Of a DNA stretch of 48,018 nt, positions 7,671-42,118 are shown piece by piece. Each line of letters begins with the position of its first letter. Position 1 is the stretch's first letter. The position numbers and the translations under genes were made by a program. This stretch comes from Desulfobacterales bacterium. GTDB taxonomy: Bacteria > Desulfobacterota > Desulfobacteria > Desulfobacterales > C00003060. The stretch is taken from NCBI GenBank assembly GCA_032126655.1, contig JAQBAU010000263.1, positions 1 through 48,018 on the forward strand. Direction: 5' to 3'. The notes under the pieces were generated by a model, which was given only the letters and a program-made list of their open reading frames with translations, did no database searches and had not been told where the DNA came from.

Positions 7671-9416
7671 ATGGGCGGGAAAGCCAAGGTTGAGAATCTG
7701 AAACAACTGATAACCAAAGGGAAGAAACAGGGCTACCTGACCTATGAGGAGCTCAACGATGCCCTGCCGGAAGGCAGGGTCTCCTCCGATCAGATTGACC
7801 AGATGATCATGGTCTTTGATGAGCTCGATATCGAGGTGATCGATGAGAGCAAAATCCAGCTGTTTGAGCTGGAAATAGAGAGGAAGGTTTTAGAAGAGGA
7901 GGCCGCCACACCGCCGCAACCAGAGCGAGATCTATTTGGCAGGGTTACCGACCCAGTCAAGATGTACCTTCGTGAGATGGGATTGGTTTCTTTGCTTAGT
8001 CGAGAGGACGAAGTCGAGATCGCCAAGCAGATAGAAGTAGGGGAGCAGGAAGTGTTGACGGCTCTCGTGCATTCAACTGTTGGGGTAGAGAAGCTTGTCC
8101 GTCTCGGCACCCCTCTTTCGAAGGGCGAACTTCGTCTGAGAGACGTTTTGCGGGACGTAGATGAAATCGATACGTTTGTCGAAGAATCGGTGCATACGGA
8201 AAAAATCTGTAAGATTATTAACGCTATTAGAAGAGTTCACCGGGAGAATGACAAGCATAGGGAGTCCCTCTTCTTGACTAAGATGGATGCCAGCGCTCGT
8301 CGCAAAGTGAGGCGTTCAATAAATCGTAGGAACCAGAGAATTTTCGAACTGATCGAGGATTGGAGGCTCGATGCCAGATTCATTGCTATGATTGTAGAGG
8401 CCATTGAAGACCGTATCGCCCGGTTTCACAGCCTAGAGCGTGAGGTGGCACAATGCGCTTCACAGTTGGGAGAGACATTGACCGACCTGCGCGCGGGCTG
8501 TAAGAGCAAAACAAAGTACATTGCCAAGTTGGCAAAGCAGCTTGACCTTAAGAAGACTGAGATTACAGCCATTATTAACCATGCCATCCTGACGATGGAG
8601 ACCATCCAACAAGAAGAGCTCCAGGTGAGAATGAATGGCCAGGCGTTGAAGCGCGTATTGGCCCGGATAGAAGAGGGTCAATACAATACCAGAATTGCCA
8701 AAGGGAGGATGATCAATGCCAATTTGAGGCTGGTCGTTAGCATTGCCAAGAAGTATACAAATAGGGGACTTCAATTCCTGGATCTGATCCAGGAAGGAAA
8801 CATAGGCCTTATGAAGGCTGTGGACAAGTTTGAATATCGAAGGGGATACAAATTCAGCACGTATGCTACGTGGTGGATTAGACAGGCTATCACGAGAGCC
8901 ATTGCTGATCAGGCCCGAACCATTCGGATCCCGGTCCACATGATCGAGACAATAAACAAGCTGATTCGGACTTCTCGCTATTTGGTGCAGGAGTTGGGCA
9001 GAGAGCCGAGGCCTGAGGAGATTGCTGAAAAAATGGAGTTTCCTCTGGAGAAAGTGCGGAAGGTTTTGAAGATTGCCAAGGAGCCCATATCTCTTGAAAC
9101 ACCTATCGGTGAAGAAGAGGACAGTCATCTCGGGGACTTTATAGAGGACAAGAAGATCATGTCGCCTTCTGAAGCTGCCATCACCCTGAATCTGGCCGAA
9201 CAGACCCGAAAAGTCCTGGCAACGTTGACGCCTCGTGAGGAGAAGGTTCTGCGTATGCGATTCGGGATTGGTGAGAAGTCGGATCATACGCTTGAAGAAG
9301 TGGGAAAGGATTTTACGGTAACCCGGGAACGTATTAGACAGATTGAGGCAAAAGCCTTGAGGAAGCTGCGTCACCCTACGAGGAGCCGCAAACTGAAGGC
9401 GTTCTTGGAGATTTGA
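7671..9416 (+). CDS. rpoD: RNA polymerase primary sigma factor
   Basis: 581 aa. Regions 1.1 to 4.2 are recognisable: [44 protein letters not shown] and the [33 protein letters not shown]. Confidence 0.97.
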
Positions 9417-9430
9417 TCGGTTCAATTTTC

Positions 9431-9459
9431 TTGACAAGTGGAGCCGTTGTGGCTACAGA
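9431..9459 (+). promoter_or_regulatory. Weak promoter candidate for the CAU tRNA
   Basis: Perfect -35 TTGACA (9431-9436), 17-nt spacer, and a poor -10 TACAGA (9454-9459). It lies 20 nt before the tRNA 5' end. Confidence 0.3.
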
Positions 9460-9479
9460 TTGGCTCAACGCGATTTTTT

Positions 9480-9555
9480 GGGCCCATAGCTCAGCTGGCA
9501 GAGCCACCGGCTCATAACCGGTAGGTCCCTGGTTCGATCCCAGGTGGGCCCACCA
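9480..9555 (+). tRNA. tRNA with CAU anticodon (Met, or Ile2 if the anticodon is lysidine-modified)
   Basis: 76-nt cloverleaf. Acceptor stem GGGCCCA/TGGGCCC, anticodon loop CTCATAA, T-arm GGTTCGATCC, encoded CCA. The C4-G69 and C5-G68 acceptor pairs resemble E. coli tRNA-Ile2, so Ile(CAU) is possible. Confidence 0.9.
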
Positions 9556-9646
9556 TGAAGAAGAAACAAGTATGGGGCGTGGAAAGGTATATAAAGGGCG
9601 TGAAGCCAAAGGGCCTGCCGCAAAAGGTGGGCTCTGGCTGCTAAAT

Positions 9647-9686
9647 GAAAAGGTGTGATCTTTTGATCACGCCTTTTCACTTTTTT
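9647..9686 (+). terminator. Rho-independent terminator downstream of the tRNA
   Basis: 14-bp stem (9647-9660 / 9665-9678, one G-U pair) with a TTTT loop, followed by AC and TTTTTT. Confidence 0.8.
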
Positions 9687-9756
9687 GGGGAGGACCTTTC
9701 ATGGCAGGATCAGGAGACATGCTGGGTCGGACATTGGGTACACAGGAGAGTATATT

Positions 9757-10476
9757 GTGAAAAGACAGGTTGACCTTTTGGTAGAACTTCAGGAGAAAGA
9801 TAAGAAGATAGACCGGTTGAGATGGCAAATACGTCAAGGCCCTGAACGGCTCAAAGGACTTGAGACTCAGTTGCAGACGCTTGAACAAGTTATTGAAGCT
9901 GATAAGAAGCGGGTCGAAGAGCTTCAGCAGGCACAACGCGAGTATGAAAGTGACATAGAGGACGGCGTAGCGCACATCAGGAAAAGCCGGGGACGCCTTA
10001 TGGGCATCAAGAATAACAGAGAGTACAAAGCCCTGCTGAGAGAGATTGAGGATACCGAAAAAGAAAACGCAAAGAAAGAAGACAAAGTCTTGGAGTGTCT
10101 GGAGGAGATTGAAGGGCTTAGTCAGGGATTTGAATTGAAGGAAGACGAGCTGTCGACAAGGCGGGATGAGCTTGAAAGCGAAAGAAAAGCGGTTGACGAA
10201 GAAGTTGCCCGCATTGAGGAAGATCTCGCCGATATGGAACAGGGCAGGGAGGAGCTGACGCAGACCATAGACTCTAACCTCCTTGGAAAGTACAAACAGA
10301 TTAAAACAACGAGCGGCGCTATAGTACTTTCGCTGGTTAATCATGCCACTTGTGGCGCATGCCACCTGGGTATTCCTCCGCAGATGTACAATGAGCTTCA
10401 GAGACAAGACACCCTACAGTTTTGTCCTCATTGCCAACGCATTATCTACTGGAAAGAGGCTGAACCTACACCCTGA
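9757..10476 (+). CDS. COG1579-type coiled-coil protein with C-terminal zinc ribbon
   Basis: Long charged coiled coil, then CGACH...17 aa...CPHCQRI (two CxxC pairs). The GTG at 9757 is preceded by GGAGAG; the upstream part of the ORF (from 9685) looks non-coding. Confidence 0.8.
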   Translation: MKRQVDLLVELQEKDKKIDRLRWQIRQGPERLKGLETQLQTLEQVIEADKKRVEELQQAQREYESDIEDGVAHIRKSRGRLMGIKNNREYKALLREIEDTEKENAKKEDKVLECLEEIEGLSQGFELKEDELSTRRDELESERKAVDEEVARIEEDLADMEQGREELTQTIDSNLLGKYKQIKTTSGAIVLSLVNHATCGACHLGIPPQMYNELQRQDTLQFCPHCQRIIYWKEAEPTP

Positions 10477-10614
10477 CCGGCGGGTTCCCCGAGCAATGCC
10501 CACCTTTCGAGACTGGGGATTTCAGAAAATATGTTGCGTGTTTCTTGTGGGAAGCGTAATATAGCCATACCCAGTTCTTGACGTAAATGCAGTCCAACAG
10601 CTTTTCCGCCTGTG

Positions 10615-11004
10615 TCAGAGCAGGCCAAACGATCGCTCGCGTCTTCAGCTGTTTGCTGGCGATGCGGGAGGAAAGTCCGAGCTCCGGAGGGCAAGGTGCT
10701 CCGTAACGCGGAGTCGTGGCAACGCGAAGGAAAGTGCCACAGAAAAGATACCGCCTTGTGAAGAACTCACAGGGTAAGGGTGAAAAGGTGCGGTAAGAGC
10801 GCACCAGTTCCTCGGGTGACTGGGGAAGCTTGGTAAACCCCACCTGGAGCAAGACCAAATAGGGAAGCGCTTGAGGGTGGCCCGCCCAAGCTTCCGGGTT
10901 GGTCGCAAGAGGTATTGGGCAACTGATACCCAGAGATGAATGATCGTTGTTCCGTAAAGGGCGACCGATACGGAAAACAGAACTCGGCTTATGGCCTGCT
11001 CTGA
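10615..11004 (+). ncRNA. rnpB: RNase P RNA, bacterial type A
   Basis: Conserved blocks GGAGGAAAGTCCGAGCTCC, CCACAGAAAAGATACCGCC, GGTAAGGGTGAAAAGGTGCGGTAAGAGCGCACC, AGCAAGACCAAATAGG and ACAGAACTCGGCTTAT. P1 is a perfect 12-bp pairing, 10615-10626 with 10993-11004. Confidence 0.93.
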
Positions 11005-11037
11005 CTCTCATTACTGTTCAGGGAGACCTAGTAGGTT

Positions 11038-12351
11038 ATGACGAAGAAGATGGCAGTTCACGCCAACGTTGCCTTCGGTGAGAAGGTTAGTACATTCTCC
11101 AAAGAATTCCTCAAGTGTTGCCTCTATATCTCCAAGACTGAGCCCACTCGTGAGACATTTACTAAGAAGTTGTACGCCAAAATGGTTTCAACCTCCAAGC
11201 TACTGGAAGATTTCCTGGACATTCATGGTGCGAAGAACAATGCTCACTGGTATTACTATCGCGAACTCGTTTCGAGTGTGAGAAATCTGTCCGAAGCGAG
11301 CTATTCACAGAAACACATTGCAAAGCGATTCCCTATGTACGGGTTGGAAGAGACCGAGGGATTTAAGGAGAACGGATATGCCACACACAAGTTCCTGATA
11401 GACTCTTTGAGAAAAATATCCCGCACTGCATTGACCGAAGCGGGGCGGCTTCAAATCGAGTCACCCAAAAGTCGTTTTGAGTGGGACGATTTTCCGGGTA
11501 TATCGACGGAGAGTTTCCTCGAGTTTGACATCGATGATCAGGACTTGGAGGAAGAGAAGAAGAACCTCGTCAAGATAACCACCGAGTTTCTTAGGGTGGC
11601 CCAGGAATTTGAATCATTGGGTTTTTATGAGGTTTACAGCTTGGATGAGATCAGAAGAATCATTCCTTCCTGCTTCAATGAACAAGAGGCACGGCGATTT
11701 GAAACGGTCGTTCATAGCCTTCAGTCGTCCTTTGACACCTATGTGAACAGAAGTGGCGCGAGGTTTGACGATGTCAGACGCAAGGAGCTAAGGGGGTATA
11801 TTTCGGTCGTTCTTCACCTTTTAGAATTGACACGTCGTCTGTTGCACTACTACGAACGGCATCTCCATGAGGTAGGATACAGGAATATCTACAAGGGGGT
11901 ACGTGACAAATTGGCCACAGCCGTCAGTCCCGAATACATGCTTGATAGAATCGTGAATTACGGCCTTTACTATATCTCGCATTTTCTGGTGCAAGGTCAG
12001 GATGTCGCCCATGAGGTTCTGAACGAAAACATAGAACGTAGCTCCGTTTCAGTGGGGATACCCCAAGAACTCGGTTTTCATAGTCGGCCGTGCATGTTGG
12101 TCGCAAAGATCGTCCAGTATTACGGCGGTCAAGTGGAACTTTTGGTGGACTCCGATCAGTTTGATGCCAGCAGTGTTTTAGACCTTCAGTGGGCCGGGGG
12201 GAAGATTCAAAAAGAAGGGATCAAGGAGGTTGTCTTCAAGGGTGATCTTCGCGCTTTGAGGGACATCAAAATTCTTGCAAGTGTGAACTACGGTGAAGAC
12301 ACCATGGGCAAAGACATTGCGTTGCCGAAGGAGCTTTCCTACCTGAAGTAA
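11038..12351 (+). CDS. Protein of unknown function with a C-terminal HPr-like (PTS phosphocarrier) domain
   Basis: 437 aa. Residues about 335-415 align to HPr (GFHSRPCMLVAKIV..., His at nt 12079-12081, DASSVLDL, and G-x-x-V...KGD). I do not recognise residues 1 to about 330. Confidence 0.75.
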   Translation: MTKKMAVHANVAFGEKVSTFSKEFLKCCLYISKTEPTRETFTKKLYAKMVSTSKLLEDFLDIHGAKNNAHWYYYRELVSSVRNLSEASYSQKHIAKRFPMYGLEETEGFKENGYATHKFLIDSLRKISRTALTEAGRLQIESPKSRFEWDDFPGISTESFLEFDIDDQDLEEEKKNLVKITTEFLRVAQEFESLGFYEVYSLDEIRRIIPSCFNEQEARRFETVVHSLQSSFDTYVNRSGARFDDVRRKELRGYISVVLHLLELTRRLLHYYERHLHEVGYRNIYKGVRDKLATAVSPEYMLDRIVNYGLYYISHFLVQGQDVAHEVLNENIERSSVSVGIPQELGFHSRPCMLVAKIVQYYGGQVELLVDSDQFDASSVLDLQWAGGKIQKEGIKEVVFKGDLRALRDIKILASVNYGEDTMGKDIALPKELSYLK

Positions 12352-32573: not shown

Positions 32574-33485
32574 TCAACTTTCATAGGACTCGACCCGGTT
32601 TCGTCCATTCTCTTTGGCTTTGTACAGAGCCTGATCCGCAAACTCAATGAGCTCTTTTGAATCGTGGATTTTCTCATGTGGAAATGTGGCAACTCCGACG
32701 CTGATAGTAACATGCAGGACATTACCATTGTCCTTAATCTCATGGCTTTCCACCATATGTCGGAGACGTTCAGCTGCCTCTATGGCTGCTGTCTGGTCTG
32801 TATGGTACATGATGAGCGCAAACTCTTCGCCTCCGTATCTTGCTGCCAAGTCGCTTTCCCTTATTGAGCGCTCAATGACTTCTGCGAGCGCCCTCAAGAC
32901 GACGTCGCCTGTCTGATGGCCATAGGTGTCGTTGAATTTCTTAAAGAAGTCTATATCTAACAAAACGCAGGATATAGTCTCATGATACCGTCTTGCACGC
33001 AAAAAATCCTGTGACAACTGTTCGTGGAAATATCGGTGGTTGTAAAGTCCTGTCAGTCCATCCCGATTAGCCATTTCCTGAAGTAGTCGATTCTGCTCCT
33101 GCACCTCTTGATAAAGTTCTCTGAGCTTCAGGTGAATATTCACACGAGCAATTAACTCCGCTTCATCAAAGGGTTTGATCACGTAATCCAGGGCCCCCAT
33201 CTGAAGACCTTTTACTTTGTCGGAGGTTTCTGCCTTTGACGTAACCATGATGATGGGAATCTCTTGAGTTGCTTCGTCCGCTTTAAGGTGTTCGCACACC
33301 TCGTAGCCATCCATGACCGGCATGATCAGATCCAACAGGATGATGTCGGGCTGTCCAAATTTGGCTGCTTCAACGCCGGCCTTGCCATCCTGAGCCAAAA
33401 TCACTTCGTGTCCCTGTTTGGTCAGCATGGTCTTGGCGACATGGGCTATCAACTTGCTATCGTCTACGATCAGTATTTTGGCCAT
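32574..33485 (-). CDS. Response regulator-diguanylate cyclase (REC-GGDEF, WspR/PleD-like)
   Basis: ILIVDDS...LLDLIMPVMDG...KP receiver domain. GGDEF domain with an intact GGEEF active site and an RESD (RxxD) I-site 5 residues upstream. Confidence 0.92.
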   Translation of the reverse strand: MAKILIVDDSKLIAHVAKTMLTKQGHEVILAQDGKAGVEAAKFGQPDIILLDLIMPVMDGYEVCEHLKADEATQEIPIIMVTSKAETSDKVKGLQMGALDYVIKPFDEAELIARVNIHLKLRELYQEVQEQNRLLQEMANRDGLTGLYNHRYFHEQLSQDFLRARRYHETISCVLLDIDFFKKFNDTYGHQTGDVVLRALAEVIERSIRESDLAARYGGEEFALIMYHTDQTAAIEAAERLRHMVESHEIKDNGNVLHVTISVGVATFPHEKIHDSKELIEFADQALYKAKENGRNRVESYES

Positions 33486-33537
33486 AAGACAATCCCCTGT
33501 ATCAGTAGTCTATTTCATAGATTTGTACAGAACCTCG

Positions 33538-34578
33538 TCATCGCTCAGCTAGCTTCGAAAGAACGATGCCCAAGATGTCACCGAGCGGAGCCACCACGTC
33601 AGCGGCACCAATCTCGATAGCCGCTCCGGGCATGCCAAAAACGACCGATGTGGCTTCGTCTTGAGCAATGGTAAAAGCCCCGGCCTGCTTCATTGCCAGG
33701 AGGCCGTCGCTCCCATCATTACCCATGCCGGTCAAAAGCACGCCAATAGCCTTGTCTCCTGCGGCCTTTGCAACCGAGTGGAACAAAACGTCTACCGAAG
33801 GCCGTTGATACTTCACCGGTTCGCCATGGTGCAGTCGGACGAAATATCCTTCGTGATCACTAACCAATTCCAGGTGTAATCCCCCGGGCGCTAAAAAGAC
33901 CTTCCCTCTGACGACGCGGTCTCCGTCTTCGGCCTCCTTGACGTCGAGCGCACAGGACGCGTCCAAGTTCTGTGCAAAGGTCTTCGTGAACCGAGGCGGC
34001 ATATGCTGTACAATAATCATTCCGTTCATATTTGAAGGCATAGCGACGAGAAGCCTATGGATAGCGCGTGTGCCGCCAGTCGAGGCTCCAATTGCGATGA
34101 TCCTGTCGGACGGGCCAATGAGAGCCTCAGGCACAGGGGGTTTTTCAGGCTGTCGGAACAGCACGGAGGGTTTGATTTTGGCCTGTGCAGCTGCCCGGAT
34201 TTTTGTCACGATTTCGTGTTTCAGTTCCTGAAGACCGGTCTTTAGGTCGTCAGTTGGTTTGGCAACGAAATCGACGGCCCCAGCGTCCAGGGCTTCTAAG
34301 GTGCGTACGCTGTTTTCACGGGTGTAAGAGCTGATCATGATTACTGGCAAAGGACGGAAGCTCATGAGGCGTTTCAGAAAGGTGATGCCATCCATTCTAG
34401 GCATCTCAATATCCAGAGTAATTACATCGGGTTTTTTTCGGACAATCAAGTCCTTAGCTTCATATGGATCAGAAGCCGTTCCCACTATCTGAATATCAGA
34501 TTCCTCCGCGAGAATGTTCTTCAGCACGGCCTGGACTGTAGGAGAATCGTCAACTATGAGTACGCGAATCGGTTTCAT
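33538..34578 (-). CDS. cheB: Protein-glutamate methylesterase/deamidase
   Basis: REC domain (IRVLIVDDS) plus the methylesterase domain (IAIGASTGG, LTGMGNDG, VVFGMP). ATGA overlap with the cheD stop. Confidence 0.95.
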   Translation of the reverse strand: MKPIRVLIVDDSPTVQAVLKNILAEESDIQIVGTASDPYEAKDLIVRKKPDVITLDIEMPRMDGITFLKRLMSFRPLPVIMISSYTRENSVRTLEALDAGAVDFVAKPTDDLKTGLQELKHEIVTKIRAAAQAKIKPSVLFRQPEKPPVPEALIGPSDRIIAIGASTGGTRAIHRLLVAMPSNMNGMIIVQHMPPRFTKTFAQNLDASCALDVKEAEDGDRVVRGKVFLAPGGLHLELVSDHEGYFVRLHHGEPVKYQRPSVDVLFHSVAKAAGDKAIGVLLTGMGNDGSDGLLAMKQAGAFTIAQDEATSVVFGMPGAAIEIGAADVVAPLGDILGIVLSKLAER

Positions 34579-35165
34579 GTCTTGAACATTATTACTGGGG
34601 ATTTTTCGAGTCGTTTCTGGAAAACCCTTGCCTTATAAGCCTGCTCATTCCGAACGAATCCTCGTTCTCTTCTTATATCAAACCGTTTCACAAGGACGCG
34701 AGTAGTATCACTGTAGAACATAATCTTTCTCCCCTTGTTTCCTCCAACATCTTCATTCACAGTAGGGATCCCCTCCAGCTCCAGAAACTTCCTTGCAAAA
34801 CGAATATTTGATGTGGTGACGTCGCCATCATCCCTTCTGAATTTAAGTACTTTGCCGCCCCCGAACAGTTTTGCCTTAAGGTCGTTTCTGCGAGCGCCAA
34901 GTTTGATCAGTTCGCCAATCAACAGTTCCATGGCATACATACCGTAACGGCCGACATCGCAAGAAAGCATCTCATCAGGATGTACCATTCCGGGAAGTAA
35001 AAAATGGTTCATCCCCCCCACTTTCCGTTCCGCGTCGTAGATACACGTGGCGATACAGGATCCTACGATAGTGTAAAGCACCTCACCATTTTGCGTTGCA
35101 AAATACTCTCCTGACGTGAGCATAATGAGAGTTTTCTTCAGTTTCTCGCTGTAAAACCGGTTCAA
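34575..35165 (-). CDS. cheD: Chemoreceptor glutamine deamidase
   Basis: LTSGEYFAT...TIVGSCIATCIYD...GGMNHFLLPG...LFGGG motifs. The start is uncertain. TTG at 35165 lies just after the cheR stop; the alternatives are TTG at 35234 (overlapping cheR) and ATG at 35123. Confidence 0.85.
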   Translation of the reverse strand: MNRFYSEKLKKTLIMLTSGEYFATQNGEVLYTIVGSCIATCIYDAERKVGGMNHFLLPGMVHPDEMLSCDVGRYGMYAMELLIGELIKLGARRNDLKAKLFGGGKVLKFRRDDGDVTTSNIRFARKFLELEGIPTVNEDVGGNKGRKIMFYSDTTRVLVKRFDIRRERGFVRNEQAYKARVFQKRLEKSPVIMFKT

Positions 35166-35181
35166 GCGCGTGTCCCGTTCT

Positions 35182-36012
35182 TTATCCCTGCTTCTGATAG
35201 GTGGAATGACCCACCAAGGCAAAGCGTTTATCAACGCCGATTAGCGACTCTGAGGCCCCTATACACAGAAAACCGTCTGTATCCAAAAGGCGGTAGAAAC
35301 CTGCAATGAGCTTCTTCTTGAATTGGGAATCAAAATATATCATCACGTTTCGACAAAAAATTATATCTACAGGACTCTTGAAAGGGAATTCCGCGCTCAT
35401 GAAGTTAAGCCTGCGAAAGACGATGTTTTTTTTCAGCTGTTCCTTAGCTATGTACAGTCCCTTATCCCTTCCCTCTCCTTCTATGAAATATCTCTTGAGG
35501 TACTATGTCTGAATCACTTCGATATCGCGGTTCGGATACGATCCTTTATAAGCAAGTTTAAGAGCGTCTGTATCAATGTCAGTGCCTAAGATCTTAATGT
35601 CCCAGTCCTCTTCGGTTGCAAGGGCGTCGTCTACTATCATGGCAATACTGTACGCCTCTTCGCCTGTTGCACATCCGGCGGACCATATACGCAGTTTCTT
35701 CGTAATCTTGTGTGCGGCAATCTGTGGCAGTACGATGTTTGCCATATGTTCAAATTGTCTTTTGTGCCGGAAGAATGCAGTCTGGTCAATGGTAATTTTG
35801 TTAATAAGTTGCCTAAGTTCCAATCCGCCATCTTTGTCATGAAGCAGGTGTTTATGATATGCACGGTACGAGTCCAATCCCAACTGGTTCATTCGTGAGG
35901 ATAACTTCCTCTGCAACGTTGCTAAATTTCTAGGAGATAATGAAATGCCAGCATGCTTGTTGATAAGTCGTCTGAATAGCTCAAACTCCGTCCTGGACAG
36001 GGGGGAGTTCAT
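35182..36012 (-). pseudogene. cheR: Chemotaxis methyltransferase CheR, full length but interrupted by one in-frame TAG
   Basis: ORFs 35503-36012 and 35182-35400 are in the same frame, and the 34 codons between them are also open. Read through, the sequence is ...IEVIQT*YLKRYFIEGEGRDKGLYIAKEQLKKNIVFRRLNF...IIFCRNVMIYFD. This aligns colinearly with E. coli CheR (...SPQLLQRYFMRG...AIFCRNVMIYFD). The TAG is at 35503-35505. Confidence 0.85.
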
Positions 36013-36030
36013 AACAGCTGACCGTGCGGA

Positions 36031-36483
36031 TTAGGTGGCATCAAGGATTTCGAGTTCCTCGGGACTCAAGAGTCGATCCGCATTCAATAAGACGATAAGC
36101 CCTTGATCTTTCTTCCCAATGCCTTGTATGTATTCCACGTGCACACCAGGAGGGAGACTGGACGCCGCCTGGACTTCTTCAGGTAAGAGTTCCACGACGT
36201 CGGAAATTTCATCCACAATCACTCCCATCATCCTTCCCGATATCTCCATAACAATAATCGAGTGGAAAGGGGTGTAGGTGGTTTTCGGGAGTTTAAACTT
36301 ATCTCTCAGATCAAATACAGGGAGAATTATTCCCCGCAGGTTGATGATCCCCTTGATGAATTCCTTCATGTTGGGCAGCGGGGTGATCTTCTGATAACTC
36401 ACAACCTCTTTTATTTTGAGGATGTCAACCCCGTATACTTGCTCGTTGATCGAGAAGATCACATATTGCTGCATTTCAGACAT
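36031..36483 (-). CDS. cheW: Chemotaxis coupling protein
   Basis: 150 aa. FSINEQVYGVDILKIKEV...INLRGIILPVFDLR signature. Its ATG overlaps the MCP stop (TGATG). Confidence 0.93.
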   Translation of the reverse strand: MSEMQQYVIFSINEQVYGVDILKIKEVVSYQKITPLPNMKEFIKGIINLRGIILPVFDLRDKFKLPKTTYTPFHSIIVMEISGRMMGVIVDEISDVVELLPEEVQAASSLPPGVHVEYIQGIGKKDQGLIVLLNADRLLSPEELEILDAT

Positions 36484-38795
36484 CAGAATTCCTCAAATCC
36501 TTCGTCCAACTCTTTGTCTATTGAGTCCTCCGGATTCTCTTCCATTGGTTGTTGGACGATAAGATCTTCACGTAAAGATTTTATGGTAGGAGGTACAGTG
36601 CCCCGCCTCTCTGTCTTTGAAAGGCGGAGGCTTTTTGAGAATCCGAGCTCTTCAATTTCGATATCACCCTCATCGCCCAAATTAAACTTTTCAGTCATAT
36701 GTTGCAGCTGGGCTGATTTTTGATTCAGCTGCTCGGTAGCACTGGCCAACTCGTCCACGAGTGTTGCATTGTGTTCAGTGACATCACTCAACTCCTCCAT
36801 CCCTTGTCCAATTTGCTCAATTCCACGTGAGCTTTCCTGAGTGGCTAACGAGACTTCGCTGAGTGCATCAGATACTTGTTTGATGGTCTGGATAATCTCC
36901 TTGAATCCGGCTTCGAGTTGGGCGACCCATTCCTTACCGGTGTTAACCTGGTCCATGATGTTACGCACAAGACTTTGAATATCCTTGGAGGCATCAGAAC
37001 TCCTCTTTGCAAGGCCGCGCACCTCGTTTGCGACAACGGCAAATCCCCGCCCCTGCTCTCCGGCACGGGCAGCTTCGACCGCCGCATTGATTGAAAGCAG
37101 ATTGGTTTGAAAAGTTATCTCGTTGATCAAATCCATCATCTCAACGATTTTGCGGCTACCCTCTGCCATGTCATTCATGGCCTGGGTTGTCCTTTCAACG
37201 GTCTCTCCACCGTCCACGGCCACAGCCACCGCCTCCTTTGCAAGAGCGTCGGCCCGTTGCATATTTGAAGCATTTTGGTTGACGTTGGATACGAGTTCTT
37301 CCACGGTTGCGCTTGTCTCTTCTACAGTAGCGGCCTGTTCCTGCGTTCGCTGCGAGAGCTCCTGGTTTCCCTCAGACATGTGCTGGACTCCCCTGACCAC
37401 CGTAAGCGCAGACCTTTTGGTTTGACTGATGAGCTCTTTCATCTGATCAAGGGTTGCGTTGGTCCTCTTCACCAGATGGTCCATTGCATCGTCTTCACCG
37501 CTCATCTCAGCTCTCACCGTGAGATCCCCATCAGCAACCTGTTCAAAAATGTCTGTCAGATTCTCAACTCTGTTCTGCAACTTCTTCTTTGCCGCCGCTT
37601 CCTTATGGATTGACTCTTTCAGGACCGATTCTGCTTCAACTTCTTTGGAGATGTCGCGTAAAAGTTCAAAACCGCCCAGGATGTTGCCATCAGAGTCCTT
37701 CAGGGCGGCCCCACTCACCATTATAGGAATTTCCTTTCCCGAAGCATCTTTCATGATAACCCTTTGACCTACGGTGGCCCGTCCCGTTTCCATTGCTCTT
37801 TTTATGGCGCAGGCAGTCTCACACACATCGCTATCAAATACCTCTCGACAGGTCATTTTTCCCTCAACATCCTCGGGCCGAACACCTGCAGCTTTTGCAG
37901 CAGCGTCATTCATATAGGTTACATTCATATCCGTATCCACCATGAAAAAGGGCTCTGAAATACCCAATTTGAGGCTGTTGGCGTACTCCATCCGGTCGCG
38001 AATGTTTCTGATCATCTGGTTAAAGTTGCCGGCCAGCCAGCCAATCGAGTCTCTGGTATCATCGTGGACTTCAACCGTGACATCCCCAGCTGAGACCTGC
38101 CCCGTCTTTTCCGCTAAGGCATGAATTCGCCGTGTCACCAGGCGATAAAAGAGGAAGTTAATAAGAAGAATGATCCCAACGATCTCCACCAGGGAAAATC
38201 CGATGAGGCGATTTCTGGCTGACGCCAGCAACGAATAGAGATCTGTGACGGAGCGTTTGACAACCATGGCGCCGAGCACTTTTCGAGTGGCTCCATGGCA
38301 GTGATGACATTGTCCTTCGTTTAAGAGGGGCCGGATCGTAACCAGGAAGGATTCATCGTCTTTGGACTCCGCGAAGGACTGGTCGGGCGACAGCCCCGAA
38401 CTCATGGCATCTCTGAGGGCTTTTTGGGTCTTTTCCTCCGACAGATGGTGCATGATGTTGGTATGAATAAGTTCCTCTTCTGAGGCATAGGTGAGCCTGT
38501 TGTCAAAGTCAGATATATAGACTTGCACGCCCTCCATATGACTTTTCATATCTTTCAGCTGCGCCTCAACAGTCTTGCTGTCTCCAATCGACATGGGATA
38601 TTTAATGGCGCTGTACGTGCTCTCGAGCAGGTCATGGCTCGACCGGTCCACTTGGTCTAAAGCGCTCCTGGTATGAAAAGACACGGTCTGATAAAGGAAC
38701 CCAGCCGTAAAGCCCACCACCACGGTAATTGTGGCAATGAGGATCTTGACGCGAAGCCCGGTTCCCTTGAGCAATCTGTCAATCCAGCTTATCAT
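36483..38795 (-). CDS. Methyl-accepting chemotaxis protein: TM, periplasmic domain with CXXCH, TM, HAMP, PAS, MA domain
   Basis: 770 aa with two TM helices (about aa 16-36 and 197-220). The periplasmic domain has a CHHCH motif (nt 38295-38309). HAMP follows, then PAS with C316/C325/C329. The highly conserved signalling hairpin is present (EITFQTNLLSINAAVEAARAGEQGRGFAVVANEVRGLA). GGAGGTG Shine-Dalgarno. Confidence 0.93.
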   Translation of the reverse strand: MISWIDRLLKGTGLRVKILIATITVVVGFTAGFLYQTVSFHTRSALDQVDRSSHDLLESTYSAIKYPMSIGDSKTVEAQLKDMKSHMEGVQVYISDFDNRLTYASEEELIHTNIMHHLSEEKTQKALRDAMSSGLSPDQSFAESKDDESFLVTIRPLLNEGQCHHCHGATRKVLGAMVVKRSVTDLYSLLASARNRLIGFSLVEIVGIILLINFLFYRLVTRRIHALAEKTGQVSAGDVTVEVHDDTRDSIGWLAGNFNQMIRNIRDRMEYANSLKLGISEPFFMVDTDMNVTYMNDAAAKAAGVRPEDVEGKMTCREVFDSDVCETACAIKRAMETGRATVGQRVIMKDASGKEIPIMVSGAALKDSDGNILGGFELLRDISKEVEAESVLKESIHKEAAAKKKLQNRVENLTDIFEQVADGDLTVRAEMSGEDDAMDHLVKRTNATLDQMKELISQTKRSALTVVRGVQHMSEGNQELSQRTQEQAATVEETSATVEELVSNVNQNASNMQRADALAKEAVAVAVDGGETVERTTQAMNDMAEGSRKIVEMMDLINEITFQTNLLSINAAVEAARAGEQGRGFAVVANEVRGLAKRSSDASKDIQSLVRNIMDQVNTGKEWVAQLEAGFKEIIQTIKQVSDALSEVSLATQESSRGIEQIGQGMEELSDVTEHNATLVDELASATEQLNQKSAQLQHMTEKFNLGDEGDIEIEELGFSKSLRLSKTERRGTVPPTIKSLREDLIVQQPMEENPEDSIDKELDEGFEEF

Positions 38796-38812
38796 GACTT
38801 CACCTCCACCGG

Positions 38813-39292
38813 TTAATGGGCACCACCGTGTACCATTGGTTTGTATCGAAAGGCGCTCACCCTTTCTTCAGTGTGACATTTCTGACAAATCTCTATGGTT
38901 ACCTTGGTAACAAGATCTCCCGGGTCCTCGCTCTCAATGTGTCTTCCACCCGGGCCATGGCAAACCTCGCAACCAGCGTCTTTCATTTCCGGGGTTTCTT
39001 CAAGACTGACAAAGCCACCGGGCTTGCCGAATCCGGTCGTGTGGCATACATAGCATCCCTTGATTTGATCGGAGGCAAGCCCCTTTTTCATTTTCAACAC
39101 ACTCTGAAACGAGTGGCTTTTTCGGGCATACTTGGTGAAGTTCTCGTACTCATGTTCGTGGCACGGCATGCAAGAATCGGACCCCACGTAGTCTATTGGA
39201 TCGTCTTCAGCCAAAGCCGGGAGGCACATAACAAAGAAAAAAACTATGCACACAAACCCCTTAGCCTGACTTGCCCTCTTTCTTGCCTTCAT
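38813..39292 (-). CDS. Periplasmic tetrahaem c-type cytochrome (cytochrome c554-like family)
   Basis: Signal peptide (VCIVFFFVMCLPALA) and four CXXCH motifs (CMPCH, CYVCH, CEVCH, CQKCH) in 159 aa. Overlaps the cheA 3' end by 32 nt and ends 17 nt before the MCP start. Confidence 0.9.
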   Translation of the reverse strand: MKARKRASQAKGFVCIVFFFVMCLPALAEDDPIDYVGSDSCMPCHEHEYENFTKYARKSHSFQSVLKMKKGLASDQIKGCYVCHTTGFGKPGGFVSLEETPEMKDAGCEVCHGPGGRHIESEDPGDLVTKVTIEICQKCHTEERVSAFRYKPMVHGGAH

Positions 39293-41432
39293 GGTTCATT
39301 TCTCCTTTAAGGGAATCCTTGAAAAAGATCTCCTCGAGTCCCAAAAGATCCAAGACCAGTGAGACCGAGCCGTCCCCCAAGATCGTAGCACCGGAAAGCC
39401 CCTTAACGCTGCGGTAATTGGTCTCGAGGGTCTTGACAATGATTTGCTTCGGTTCCAAAAGCTCATCAACAGCCATACCAAAGGCTTTTGTCCCCGTGTC
39501 CACGAAAATCACCACGCTACTGTGCCCATTTGTTGACGACGTTCCAGTGTCAAGAATCTTCGCAACGTTGACAAGTGGAAGATAGTCGCCCCGGAATGGA
39601 TAGACCCGTTCCTCCGATCCAACCTGTTTGACGAGGCTCTCTTCAAAGCGTTGAGTCCCGACAACGACCTGGACCGGCACCAGGTATGACGTCCCTTCAA
39701 CCACTACATGCAAGACTTCCATAAGGGCAGATGTCAGGGGGAGGCATAAGATAAAAGTTGTTCCCCTATCCTTTTCCGTCCGTACCTCTATGGTGCCTCC
39801 CAGTTTATCAAGCTGCGTTTTGACCACGTCCATCCCAACCCCCCTGCCGGAGAGCTCGGTGACTTCAGTGGTTGTGGAGAATCCGGATCTGAAAATGAAG
39901 TCGAGTAGTTCCTGTTCACTCGGGACCTGGTTGGGTTGAATCCAACCCTTCTCCAGAGCCTTTTGGTGGATGCTCTGTAGATCAATGCCTCTACCATCCT
40001 CTGAAATCTCAACGAAGATCCGCCCTCCCCTCTGGTATGCACGAAGTTCAACTGTTCCTTCCGGCGGTTTTCCTTTGGCCTCTCTTTCTTCCGGCGTTTC
40101 TATGCCGTGATCAACGCAGTTGCGGACGAGATGTTTCAGAGGGTCTGTACAGTATTCTATCACCTCTTTGTCCAGTTCAGTGTCAAGTCCGGCCAAGATC
40201 ACCTTGATTCGCTTGTTTTGTTTGAGGGCCAGATCTCTTGCCATGCGTTGAAATCTGCGAAATGTTCCTTCCAGAGGAAACATGCGGACCCTTGCCACAC
40301 GTTCCTGAAGCTCACGATTCACTTTCAGAAGGTTTTCCATCTCTTCCAGGATTTCCATGCGCTGGGAGCCAAGAAGTTTTTCTAGGAGCGACTGCGCCTT
40401 AGAAAGACCAATCCCCATCTCTTCACCCAGGTTCACGAGTCTGTCTATTTTATCCACGTCAACTCGAATGGTGGTTTTGCGATAGATTTTTCTGCTTTCT
40501 TCCTGCGCTGCAATTGCTTTCTCGAGTTCTTCGGGCTGAATCTTTCCGTCTTCAACCAGAATTTCACCGAGCATTTTCTGTTTCTTCAGGGCACGGGTCA
40601 ATGTCTCCTCGGTGATCTTGCTTTCTCCCACAAGAACTTCACCGAGTTTCTTGTCAGCCAGTTTTGTGTCGATGCCTTCCCTGTAGTCTTTGGTGATGTC
40701 TTCAATACGAATGTCATTGTCATCCATTACGAACATGAAGATATCATCAATGTCCTCTCTGGGCATCTTGGTCTTGATGATGATTTGCCAGGATATGTAG
40801 AGCTCGAACATGGAAAGGTTTTCGAAACCCGGAAGCTCTGAAAGGTTGGGCACTACTGAAACAAATTCGGCTAATTCAGAAAGATTGAGTAAAAGGAGGA
40901 GCGGATCCTGCCCGGAATAGAAGAGGTGTTTTTCGAAATTCAGATCAATCTTGTAGAAGGAAAACTTCTCTGCAGGTTCCTCGAGAGGTTGTGTCAGTGC
41001 TGCCTCGACTTCGTCTTCACGTGGAGTCGCAGCTTCCACGCCCAAATAGCGCTTTACCTGCCCCTGTCGCTGACTGAGAACTTCAGGGTCGGCTTCAGCT
41101 TCGCCTTCAGCCACCCGATCAAGCATGGATCGAATGAAATCGATGGCGTCCAGAAGGAAAGTAATCAGGTTATTTGTCACGGCCAGCTTGCCGGACCTGA
41201 GACGCTCCAGGAGGTTTTCAAGGAGGTGGGTGTACTCTGAAATACCCATAAACCCGACCATGGCCGCGCCACTCTTCATGGTATGAACAGACCTGAACAG
41301 TTGTTCTATGTCTTCGGTGGATTCAGGAGTGGATTCAAGCGCCAGCAAGCTTTCTTCGGCCGACTTTACCAGCTCATCCGTCTCGGAGAAGAAAATCTGC
41401 AGGGTTTCGTCCAGTTCACTCATTTCGGCCAT
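39261..41432 (-). CDS. cheA: Chemotaxis histidine kinase
   Basis: Hpt (FRSVHTMKSGA), dimerisation domain (IRVDVDKIDRLVNLGEE), HATPase (NCVDHGIE...DGRGID...GRGVGMDVV) and a C-terminal CheW-like domain. Start is ATG 41432 or ATG 41423; the latter forms an ATGA overlap with the cheY stop. Confidence 0.95.
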   Translation of the reverse strand: MAEMSELDETLQIFFSETDELVKSAEESLLALESTPESTEDIEQLFRSVHTMKSGAAMVGFMGISEYTHLLENLLERLRSGKLAVTNNLITFLLDAIDFIRSMLDRVAEGEAEADPEVLSQRQGQVKRYLGVEAATPREDEVEAALTQPLEEPAEKFSFYKIDLNFEKHLFYSGQDPLLLLLNLSELAEFVSVVPNLSELPGFENLSMFELYISWQIIIKTKMPREDIDDIFMFVMDDNDIRIEDITKDYREGIDTKLADKKLGEVLVGESKITEETLTRALKKQKMLGEILVEDGKIQPEELEKAIAAQEESRKIYRKTTIRVDVDKIDRLVNLGEEMGIGLSKAQSLLEKLLGSQRMEILEEMENLLKVNRELQERVARVRMFPLEGTFRRFQRMARDLALKQNKRIKVILAGLDTELDKEVIEYCTDPLKHLVRNCVDHGIETPEEREAKGKPPEGTVELRAYQRGGRIFVEISEDGRGIDLQSIHQKALEKGWIQPNQVPSEQELLDFIFRSGFSTTTEVTELSGRGVGMDVVKTQLDKLGGTIEVRTEKDRGTTFILCLPLTSALMEVLHVVVEGTSYLVPVQVVVGTQRFEESLVKQVGSEERVYPFRGDYLPLVNVAKILDTGTSSTNGHSSVVIFVDTGTKAFGMAVDELLEPKQIIVKTLETNYRSVKGLSGATILGDGSVSLVLDLLGLEEIFFKDSLKGEMNHEGKKEGKSG

Positions 41433-41803
41433 ACCACCTTTTTGACGGCCCACAGGAGCTGCTCCGGTTGGAAAGGCTTCAGCAGCCACCCGGAAGCCCC
41501 TGCAGCTCGACCCTCTTCTATCAATGACTCTTCAGATTCCGTGCTAAGAACCAGTATGGGGATGAATTTGAATTCGGTCTCTTTTACTTTCGTTATGAAA
41601 GTGATCCCGTCCATTCGCGGCATATTAATGTCGGTGATGATGAGAGCAAGGGGCTGCTCCTTGTCTTTTATGGACTGTAGTTTGTCGAGGCCATCCATTC
41701 CGTCTTCGGCCTCTGTCACCCTGTATCCTGCATTGCGCAGGCAGAAGGTGACTGATGACCTCATCGTCGGGGAATCATCTACAAACAGGATAAGCTTTTC
41801 CAT
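41420..41803 (-). CDS. cheY: Single-domain chemotaxis response regulator
   Basis: 127 aa. LFVDDSPTMR...ITDINMPRMDG...LSTE...KPF. Confidence 0.92.
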   Translation of the reverse strand: MEKLILFVDDSPTMRSSVTFCLRNAGYRVTEAEDGMDGLDKLQSIKDKEQPLALIITDINMPRMDGITFITKVKETEFKFIPILVLSTESEESLIEEGRAAGASGWLLKPFQPEQLLWAVKKVVWPK

Positions 41804-41815
41804 CTTGGCACACCA

Positions 41816-42118
41816 TCAAAGGAATGCGGTTCTAAGCCCCGAGAGGGACAAGATGTCCTCTACCTCAGCAGAGAGGGCAGAGATCTTCAACTCGGTATCA
41901 GGCTCTATCCACCTTTTAAAGGCAATGAGGAGTTGCAGGACAGCAGTATCTATAAACCCAACTTCCGCAAAGGAAATAACGATCTTCTTATTCTTTCCGC
42001 TTTTTAGGGACTTCTCTAGAAAATCTTTGAGCTCTTCCAGTTCATGGATAGTGAGCTCACCTTGAAGGTGGTAGGTGCCGCGTTTGTCTTGGTTTAAGCT
42101 AAAGTTTTTTGAAGCCAT
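41816..42118 (-). CDS. STAS-domain protein (anti-sigma-factor-antagonist-like)
   Basis: 100 aa. L.GELTIHELEELKDFL...ISFAEVGFIDTAVLQLLIAF is a typical STAS/SpoIIAA-like pattern. Located 12 nt upstream of cheY. Confidence 0.7.
   Translation of the reverse strand: MASKNFSLNQDKRGTYHLQGELTIHELEELKDFLEKSLKSGKNKKIVISFAEVGFIDTAVLQLLIAFKRWIEPDTELKISALSAEVEDILSLSGLRTAFL

Follow-up and report, generated by a model that had tools for sequence, protein, structure and literature searches.

The chemotaxis kinase CheA of a Desulfobacterales bacterium carries, just ahead of its dimerisation domain, two 24-residue motifs in tandem that together form a compact homologue of MshEN_N, a domain family that counts binders of cyclic di-guanosine monophosphate (c-di-GMP) among its members. 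The gene lies on the minus strand of a stretch of 48,018 nucleotides (contig JAQBAU010000263.1 of assembly GCA_032126655.1, positions 1 to 48,018), hereafter the window, in a chemosensory operon whose last gene encodes a response regulator with a receiver (REC) and a GGDEF domain. Of the explanations weighed below, we somewhat favour that of an MshEN-type module which binds c-di-GMP and alters the output of the kinase. The fusion, noticed in an initial annotation of the stretch that was made from the letters alone, is not itself new: Wang et al. 2016 (PMC5013675; Nat Commun 7:12481, Supplementary Tables 4 and 6) had already catalogued MshEN fused to CheA, with the layout HPT - CheY-binding - MshEN_N - P3 - P4 - P5, and their Supplementary Table 6 gives a dissociation constant (KD) of 2.6 μM for c-di-GMP and the Aeromonas CheA fragment 261-390. 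Nothing later than that paper was found in the literature on c-di-GMP acting on CheA. The present finding is thus the addition of one member, in a Wsp-like setting, to a known architecture; the compressed variant that it represents, with a one-residue spacer and a polar position 11, is on the evidence of pattern searches widespread among CheAs.

A compressed MshEN_N module

On the minus strand, positions 40503-40649 of the window translate exactly as KLGEVLVGESKITEETLTRALKKQ-K-MLGEILVEDGKIQPEELEKAIAAQ, residues 281-329 of CheA, and the two motifs that the initial annotation had placed at residues 281-304 and 306-329 are therefore both present, one residue apart. The copies are identical to each other at 11 of 24 residues. 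Both satisfy a relaxed form of the MshEN pattern that would be expected 3e-6 times in a protein of the same composition, and a tandem pair of it some 1e-13 times; a six-frame translation of the window holds no other such tandem.

Kinship with MshEN_N domains was evident at several levels of sequence comparison. A single segment of 85 residues, compared with the sequences of the PDB, recovered Thermus PilF (E 2.7e-11) along with other GSPII/MshEN domains. A family profile (A2) built from 35 homologous segments matched PilF at 1.4e-24, PilB at 4.1e-8 (5zfr) and 5.7e-8 (5tsg), PilF GSPII-C at 4.2e-8 (6ejf), Vibrio cholerae MshE at 3.6e-6 (5htl) and the c-di-GMP-bound PilF GSPII-B at 4.9e-6 (8pdk), every alignment covering both motifs and each requiring an insertion of 4-6 residues in the target at the spacer. 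Aligned by hhalign with nine MshEN_N domains, drawn partly from the PDB alignments and partly from the supplement to Wang et al. 2016, the same profile gave, over 53 columns, a probability of 98.9% and an E-value of 3e-17, a gap of 4 residues falling at the spacer. Because matches and gap agree in this way, the segment can be securely assigned by sequence as an MshEN_N homologue with a shortened alpha2-alpha3 loop, and the kinship first proposed for it holds against solved domains (profile E 4e-8 to 5e-6) as well as by hhalign.

Place of the module in CheA

Residue numbers throughout are those of the longest open reading frame (ORF; 39261-41489, minus strand), which opens at a GTG at 41489, inside cheY. 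The true start is more likely the ATG at 41423, since it yields an ATGA overlap with the cheY stop and a product of 720 amino acids as in the homologues, which begin MSE..DETL. Numbers counted from the GTG are then 22 too high, motif 1 becoming residues 259-282 and motif 2 residues 284-307 (module 259-307).

Pfam, supplemented for the P2-like part by AlphaFold2 (AF2) and Foldseek, gives the order Hpt - P2-like - MshEN_N - P3 - P4 - P5 (Table 1); the protein terminates with P5, and Pfam finds no receiver domain. The module ends 10 residues ahead of the match to H-kinase_dim (residues 339-399), so that its description as lying immediately before the dimerisation domain was apt. From the A2 alignment AF2 predicts four helices, placed as an MshEN_N domain would have them, at segment residues 16-22, 28-37, 41-47 and 53-74, with a mean predicted local distance difference test (pLDDT) score of 70, and in this prediction the last module helix continues into P3. 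A longer alignment (A3), spanning CheA residues 173-335, gave a model of mean pLDDT 76 in which a beta-alpha-beta-beta-alpha-beta domain, itself at pLDDT 76-90, stands upstream of the four helices. This domain dominates the Foldseek list for the 163-residue model: its top match in the PDB is the P2 domain of Thermotoga maritima CheA (1u0s_A; E 9e-3, probability 1.0, target TM-score 0.65), the remaining matches being generic ferredoxin-like folds. Searched by sequence against the PDB, the P2-like part gave no matches other than those due to the module. The model supports a P2-like domain at residues ~177-265, and since this fold lies upstream and is best matched by Thermotoga CheA P2, the module is inserted between the P2-like domain and P3. 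The first view of it, as a replacement sitting where P2 normally sits, was rejected on the same grounds.

Table 1. Features of the cheA locus; positions are those of the window.
Feature	Position	Strand	Basis
cheA gene, likely start ATG 41423	39261..41423	-	ORF, homologue starts, ATGA overlap
P1 (Hpt), residues 29-127	41109..41405	-	Pfam PF01627, E 2.6e-16
P2-like domain (predicted), residues ~177-265	40695..40961	-	AF2 model and Foldseek
MshEN-type motif 1, KLGEVLVGESKITEETLTRALKKQ, residues 281-304	40578..40649	-	Translation; aligned to motif I of MshE, PilB, PilF
One-residue spacer K305 (5 residues in MshEN)	40575..40577	-	Translation, hhalign
MshEN-type motif 2, MLGEILVEDGKIQPEELEKAIAAQ, residues 306-329	40503..40574	-	Translation
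P3 dimerisation domain, residues 339-399	40293..40475	-	Pfam PF02895 (H-kinase_dim), E 2.7e-5, 25.0 bits, cut-off 23
P4 (HATPase_c, PF02518, residues 449-586) and P5 (CheW-like, PF01584, residues 591-718)	39336..40145	-	Pfam
Chemosensory operon: STAS, cheY, cheA, cytochrome c, methyl-accepting chemotaxis protein (MCP; HAMP-PAS), cheW, cheR, cheD, cheB, REC-GGDEF	32574..42118	-	ORFs, Pfam, same order in homologous loci with different flanks
REC-GGDEF response regulator, last operon gene	32574..33485	-	Pfam Response_reg E 2.6e-30, GGDEF E 1.8e-52

Residues that would contact the ligand

Six residues in each motif contact the ligand according to Wang et al. 2016 (PMC5013675): R1 is stacked on a guanine, a hydrophobic triangle composed of L2 and the partner motif's L17' and L21' packs on the second guanine, the backbone amide of G3 contacts the Hoogsteen edge, and Q24 contacts ribose and phosphate. 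At these positions the CheA module reads K-L-G-L-L-Q in motif 1 and M-L-G-L-I-Q in motif 2. Its lack of the leading arginine had been listed at the outset as a caveat. Lysine and methionine do occupy position 1, as stated then; as an objection to binding, the point largely falls away, because GSPII-B of Thermus thermophilus PilF binds c-di-GMP with a KD of 6 nM while carrying K167 and L196 there (Neissner et al. 2024, PMC11731258). In that domain K167L lowers the KD to 2 nM and an arginine at either place weakens binding, and the consensus has been widened to (R/K/L)LG (PMC11731258). Scored against the extended consensus (R/K/L)1-L2-G3-L17-L21-Q24, motif 1 has 6/6 and motif 2 has 4/6 residues, or 10/12 literal matches in total, the two departures of motif 2 (M for R/K/L, and I326 for L) being conservative and hydrophobic. 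Core positions 6, 7 and 12 are hydrophobic in both motifs, as expected, and the core and turn taken as a whole depart from the consensus at positions 10 and 11.

Three characterised proteins set the module in context. Aeromonas CheA shares the domain order and the tandem motif directly before P3, and its motifs begin MLG and KLG, with M and K at position 1 where the present protein has K and M; its spacer is of ~9 residues rather than one, its position 11 is Ala rather than Lys, and an effect on kinase activity is not reported in Wang et al. 2016. The MshEN_N domain of V. cholerae MshE (5HTL; profile E as above) likewise consists of two 24-residue motifs, whose L2, G3, L17, L21 and Q24 are all kept here save for I326 in place of L21 in motif 2, and the four helices predicted for the CheA module would be a further likeness. 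The MshE domain differs in its 53 residues and 5-residue spacer, against 49 and one, in having R at position 1 and a hydrophobic residue at position 11, and in leading on to MshEN_C and a secretion ATPase, the module here being embedded in a histidine kinase. PilF GSPII-B (8PDK) similarly has no Arg at position 1, and the stacking of K167 and L196 on the guanines is a precedent for K281 and M306; its spacer is of 5 residues, it has W/L at position 11, and its C-terminal subdomain, for which CheA has no counterpart, supplies an Asp contact (PMC11731258).

Conservation and distribution

A search with residues 170-345 returned 146 homologous proteins, and all those with a source name are CheAs of Desulfobacterales or Thermodesulfobacteriota. 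The spacer is one residue long in 118 of the 119 motif-bearing close homologues, and position 11 is polar in most of the family. Among 35 homologues G283, L286, A300, L301 and Q304 of motif 1 are invariant, as are G308 and L311 of motif 2, with Q329 nearly so. Beyond this circle, a scan of species-representative genomes with the junction peptide QK[KMR]LG[EQ]IL[VL][ED] brought in 155 relatives from several orders of Desulfobacterota, from Nitrospirota, Spirochaetota, Planctomycetota (Kuenenia), Bdellovibrionales, Clostridia and Ignavibacteriales; the one-residue-spacer module is present in CheAs of at least six phyla.

We gathered 126 non-redundant modules of this type with a search pattern that fixed G3 and hydrophobic residues at L2, L17 and L21 and left Q24 and position 1 free. 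The glycine, present in 100% of them, is demanded by the pattern and hence no independent measure of conservation. Q24 is found in 90% of first motifs and in 98% of the second, and 70-73% have K or R at position 1, which is the conservation to be expected of a binding site that has been kept. The spacer residue is itself Lys in 114 modules (90%).

When the 150 closest CheA representatives (clusters at 50% identity) were examined with a strict pattern, 48 had the tandem motif, with a spacer of one residue in 34 and of 2-14 in the others; several representatives scored as 'none' hold degenerate tandems, with RAG or RTG in place of RLG. When 118 CheA cores were placed in a FastTree phylogeny and marked according to the state of the module, the states were intermixed and support was weak, and as the strict pattern scores degenerate copies as 'none' we draw no conclusion from it on gain or loss. 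Five related CheAs (P0126, P0130, P0133, P0153 and P0165) have low-complexity, acidic or Pro/Gln-rich sequence at the site of the module, and three of them (P0126, P0133 and P0165) visibly retain the end of the P2-like domain just ahead of the low-complexity stretch. Such replacement shows that the kinase core can do without the module, and its occurrence in near relatives fits an accessory input module.

The operon and its diguanylate cyclase

As the initial annotation had noted, the operon ends in a diguanylate cyclase gene. The REC-GGDEF protein is intact and has a GGEEF motif, exactly five residues upstream of which stands RESD, an RxxD inhibitory site (I-site), and because of this site the enzyme is probably inhibited by its own product independently of any effect on CheA. 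Pfam finds in the one cluster an MCP, CheW, CheR, CheB, CheA and a REC-GGDEF output, as in the Wsp pathway of Pseudomonas. The differences lie in WspE, a CheA-REC hybrid not reported to carry an MshEN module, whereas here CheA lacks a receiver domain and a separate CheY is encoded upstream, and in the further genes of the window cluster, which adds STAS, the separate CheY, CheD and a small multihaem cytochrome c. In the Wsp system feedback is known at the I-site of WspR and is not known at the kinase.

Loci were mapped with hidden Markov models built from the window's own proteins; the GGDEF model came from close homologues, so that very divergent GGDEF genes could escape it, and a motif search added none. 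In the close clade (at least 45% identity) REC-GGDEF is the last gene, and the gene order is conserved, in 20/20 clusters complete through cheB, representing 17 distinct contigs after de-duplication, with different flanks. Among complete distant clusters with the same module, a GGDEF gene is found in 1/33: locus L080 of a Nitrospira, where cheD and cheB have between them a long ORF (8125-11322, plus strand) that contains both a GADEF and a GGDEF motif. In L072 the string 'GGDEF' was dismissed as a chance match inside CheR. With so few distant clusters holding such a gene, the module did not, on this distribution, evolve as a feedback site for the cyclase; it is to be read as predating the cyclase output and as not depending on it, and co-evolution of the two was rejected. 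The product-feedback site first suggested is plausible as an arrangement in this operon and wrong as an account of origin, and a loop here is possible as the by-product of two parts combined. The initial annotation had also allowed that the segment might prove a generic helical linker, common in CheAs from operons without GGDEF genes; the distribution is indeed of that kind, the segment itself being an MshEN_N homologue and no generic linker.

Several other features of the cluster deserve record. In most of 80 module-bearing loci (L006-L085), across phyla, cheA is preceded by a STAS gene, as a rule with a single-domain REC gene after it; in the window the pair occupies 41420-42118 on the minus strand. 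The count covers module-bearing loci only. Between cheA and the MCP gene, and overlapping the end of cheA, lies a small cytochrome c gene (38813-39292, minus strand; Pfam Cytochrome_C554, E 2e-17) that is kept there in most close-clade loci and absent in L004 and L005. The cheR gene (35182-36012, minus strand) is one frame of 276 codons broken by a single in-frame TAG at 35503-35505 (...DIEVIQT*YLKRYF...); in the resulting ORF of 169 amino acids Pfam recognises no more than the first half of the S-adenosylmethionine-binding domain, homologous CheR proteins being intact at 245-277 amino acids. The TAG could reflect a pseudogene, a sequencing error or read-through.

How the module might act

We envisage an MshEN_N-type module, set between the P2-like domain and the P3 helix, whose two helix-turn-helix motifs are joined by a single Lys where the usual loop has 5 residues, and across whose two half-sites one molecule of c-di-GMP would be bound. 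Because the last module helix is predicted to run into the first helix of P3, binding would be expected to change kinase output, and could do so by altering the geometry of P3 and P4 or the way in which P1 is delivered. In this operon CheA would phosphorylate the REC-GGDEF protein and the cyclase would make c-di-GMP; since the last gene appears to encode a CheA-dependent cyclase, the product of the pathway could act back on its own kinase, with either sign. The module itself descends from a broad CheA lineage and did not evolve for the present cyclase. Whether the module binds c-di-GMP at all we judge to be nearly evenly balanced, with a slight lean towards binding. Doubtful, by comparison, is the full proposal that the 49-residue, one-spacer module is a working c-di-GMP sensor which closes a direct loop of CheA, REC-GGDEF and c-di-GMP, resetting the activity of the kinase when c-di-GMP is bound at the top of P3, and is also a general c-di-GMP input to chemotaxis kinases.

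A number of observations weigh against a binding module. The spacer, a single residue (K305) against ~5 in the 53-residue MshEN_N, is without precedent, as the binders in the published alignments examined have 3 to ~9; the lower figure is that of Bd2402, listed as a binder in Wang et al. 2016, counted from the printed alignment. At position 11, where the consensus has a hydrophobic residue, both copies carry Lys (K291 and K316), a departure that the initial annotation did not list. A polar residue there is equally without precedent among the published binders examined, and the changes listed for the non-binder XpsE in Wang 2016 (PMC5013675) include I19R, which is position 11. The Gly at position 10, present in motif 2, is Ser in motif 1, again without precedent among those binders. 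PF05157 (T2SSE_N), the profile proposed at the outset as a check, matched neither the full CheA nor two cut-out segments at E up to 10, the sole Pfam match over the module being a weak one to DUF4388 (E 0.005-0.09); PF05157 probably misses the module because it also models the C-subdomain, which CheA lacks. AF2 confidence over the module is just ~65-82 pLDDT, and Foldseek against the PDB found no MshEN match with either the 75-residue model, which drew two meaningless matches (E > 6), or the 163-residue one. Nothing ties the module to the product of the cyclase, given the 1/33 distant clusters, and the literature searched yielded neither binding nor kinase data for any one-spacer CheA.

The leading alternative, a minority possibility of real substance, is a degenerate MshEN_N relic that has lost nucleotide binding and serves as a rigid connector setting the distance from P2 to P3, or offers a surface on which a partner could dock, one candidate being the STAS protein or CheY, whose genes immediately precede cheA in most module-bearing clusters. 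The spacer and the polar position 11, outside the range of the published binders examined, speak for it, as do the want of a PF05157 or Foldseek match and the STAS gene, usually with its REC gene, that stands ahead of cheA in most of those 80 loci. Many GSPII domains, moreover, do not bind c-di-GMP, among them XpsE and PilF GSPII-A (PMC12002112). Yet the loss of G3, L17, L21 or Q24 is typical of GSPII domains that do not bind (the sequence of PilF GSPII-A has H for Q24 of motif 1 and A for G3 of motif 2, and lacks a closing Q), whereas here all are kept, with Q24 at 90-98% across phyla. A plain connector would need neither two Gln nor two N-cap Gly at fixed positions, and the disordered linker that replaces the module in some relatives implies that a rigid connector is not required.

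Improbable, in our view, is a module adapted to a different small ligand, such as 3'3'-cyclic GMP-AMP (cGAMP) or another cyclic dinucleotide. A shortened loop would change the distance between the half-sites, and MshEN does bind cGAMP weakly, with a KD of 330 μM against 0.5 μM for c-di-GMP; but every MshEN_N domain tested in the literature examined prefers c-di-GMP, the module retains the guanine-contact residues, c-di-GMP is what the operon itself produces, and nothing was found in favour of another ligand. An amphipathic helical linker that resembles the motif by chance can be ruled out for practical purposes: the motif is composed of common helix-forming residues and Pfam gave merely its weak DUF4388 match, but the tandem expectation, the profile E-values against solved MshEN domains, the hhalign probability and the position-by-position conservation of the module across phyla all contradict it.

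Implications for chemosensory signalling

c-di-GMP is known to enter chemotaxis through PilZ adaptors such as YcgR and MapZ, through the CheY-like Cle proteins and through receptors that bear PilZ domains. For direct action on CheA, by comparison, the support is one binding value from a supplement (Wang 2016). Should c-di-GMP be bound by the compressed module, this operon would lend itself well to a test, since its output enzyme produces the ligand; and the loop proposed for it, if true, would be that of a chemosensory kinase gated by the second messenger of its own pathway. Binding by the compressed module would also mean that a large set of CheAs, drawn from across the phyla, are second-messenger-gated kinases.

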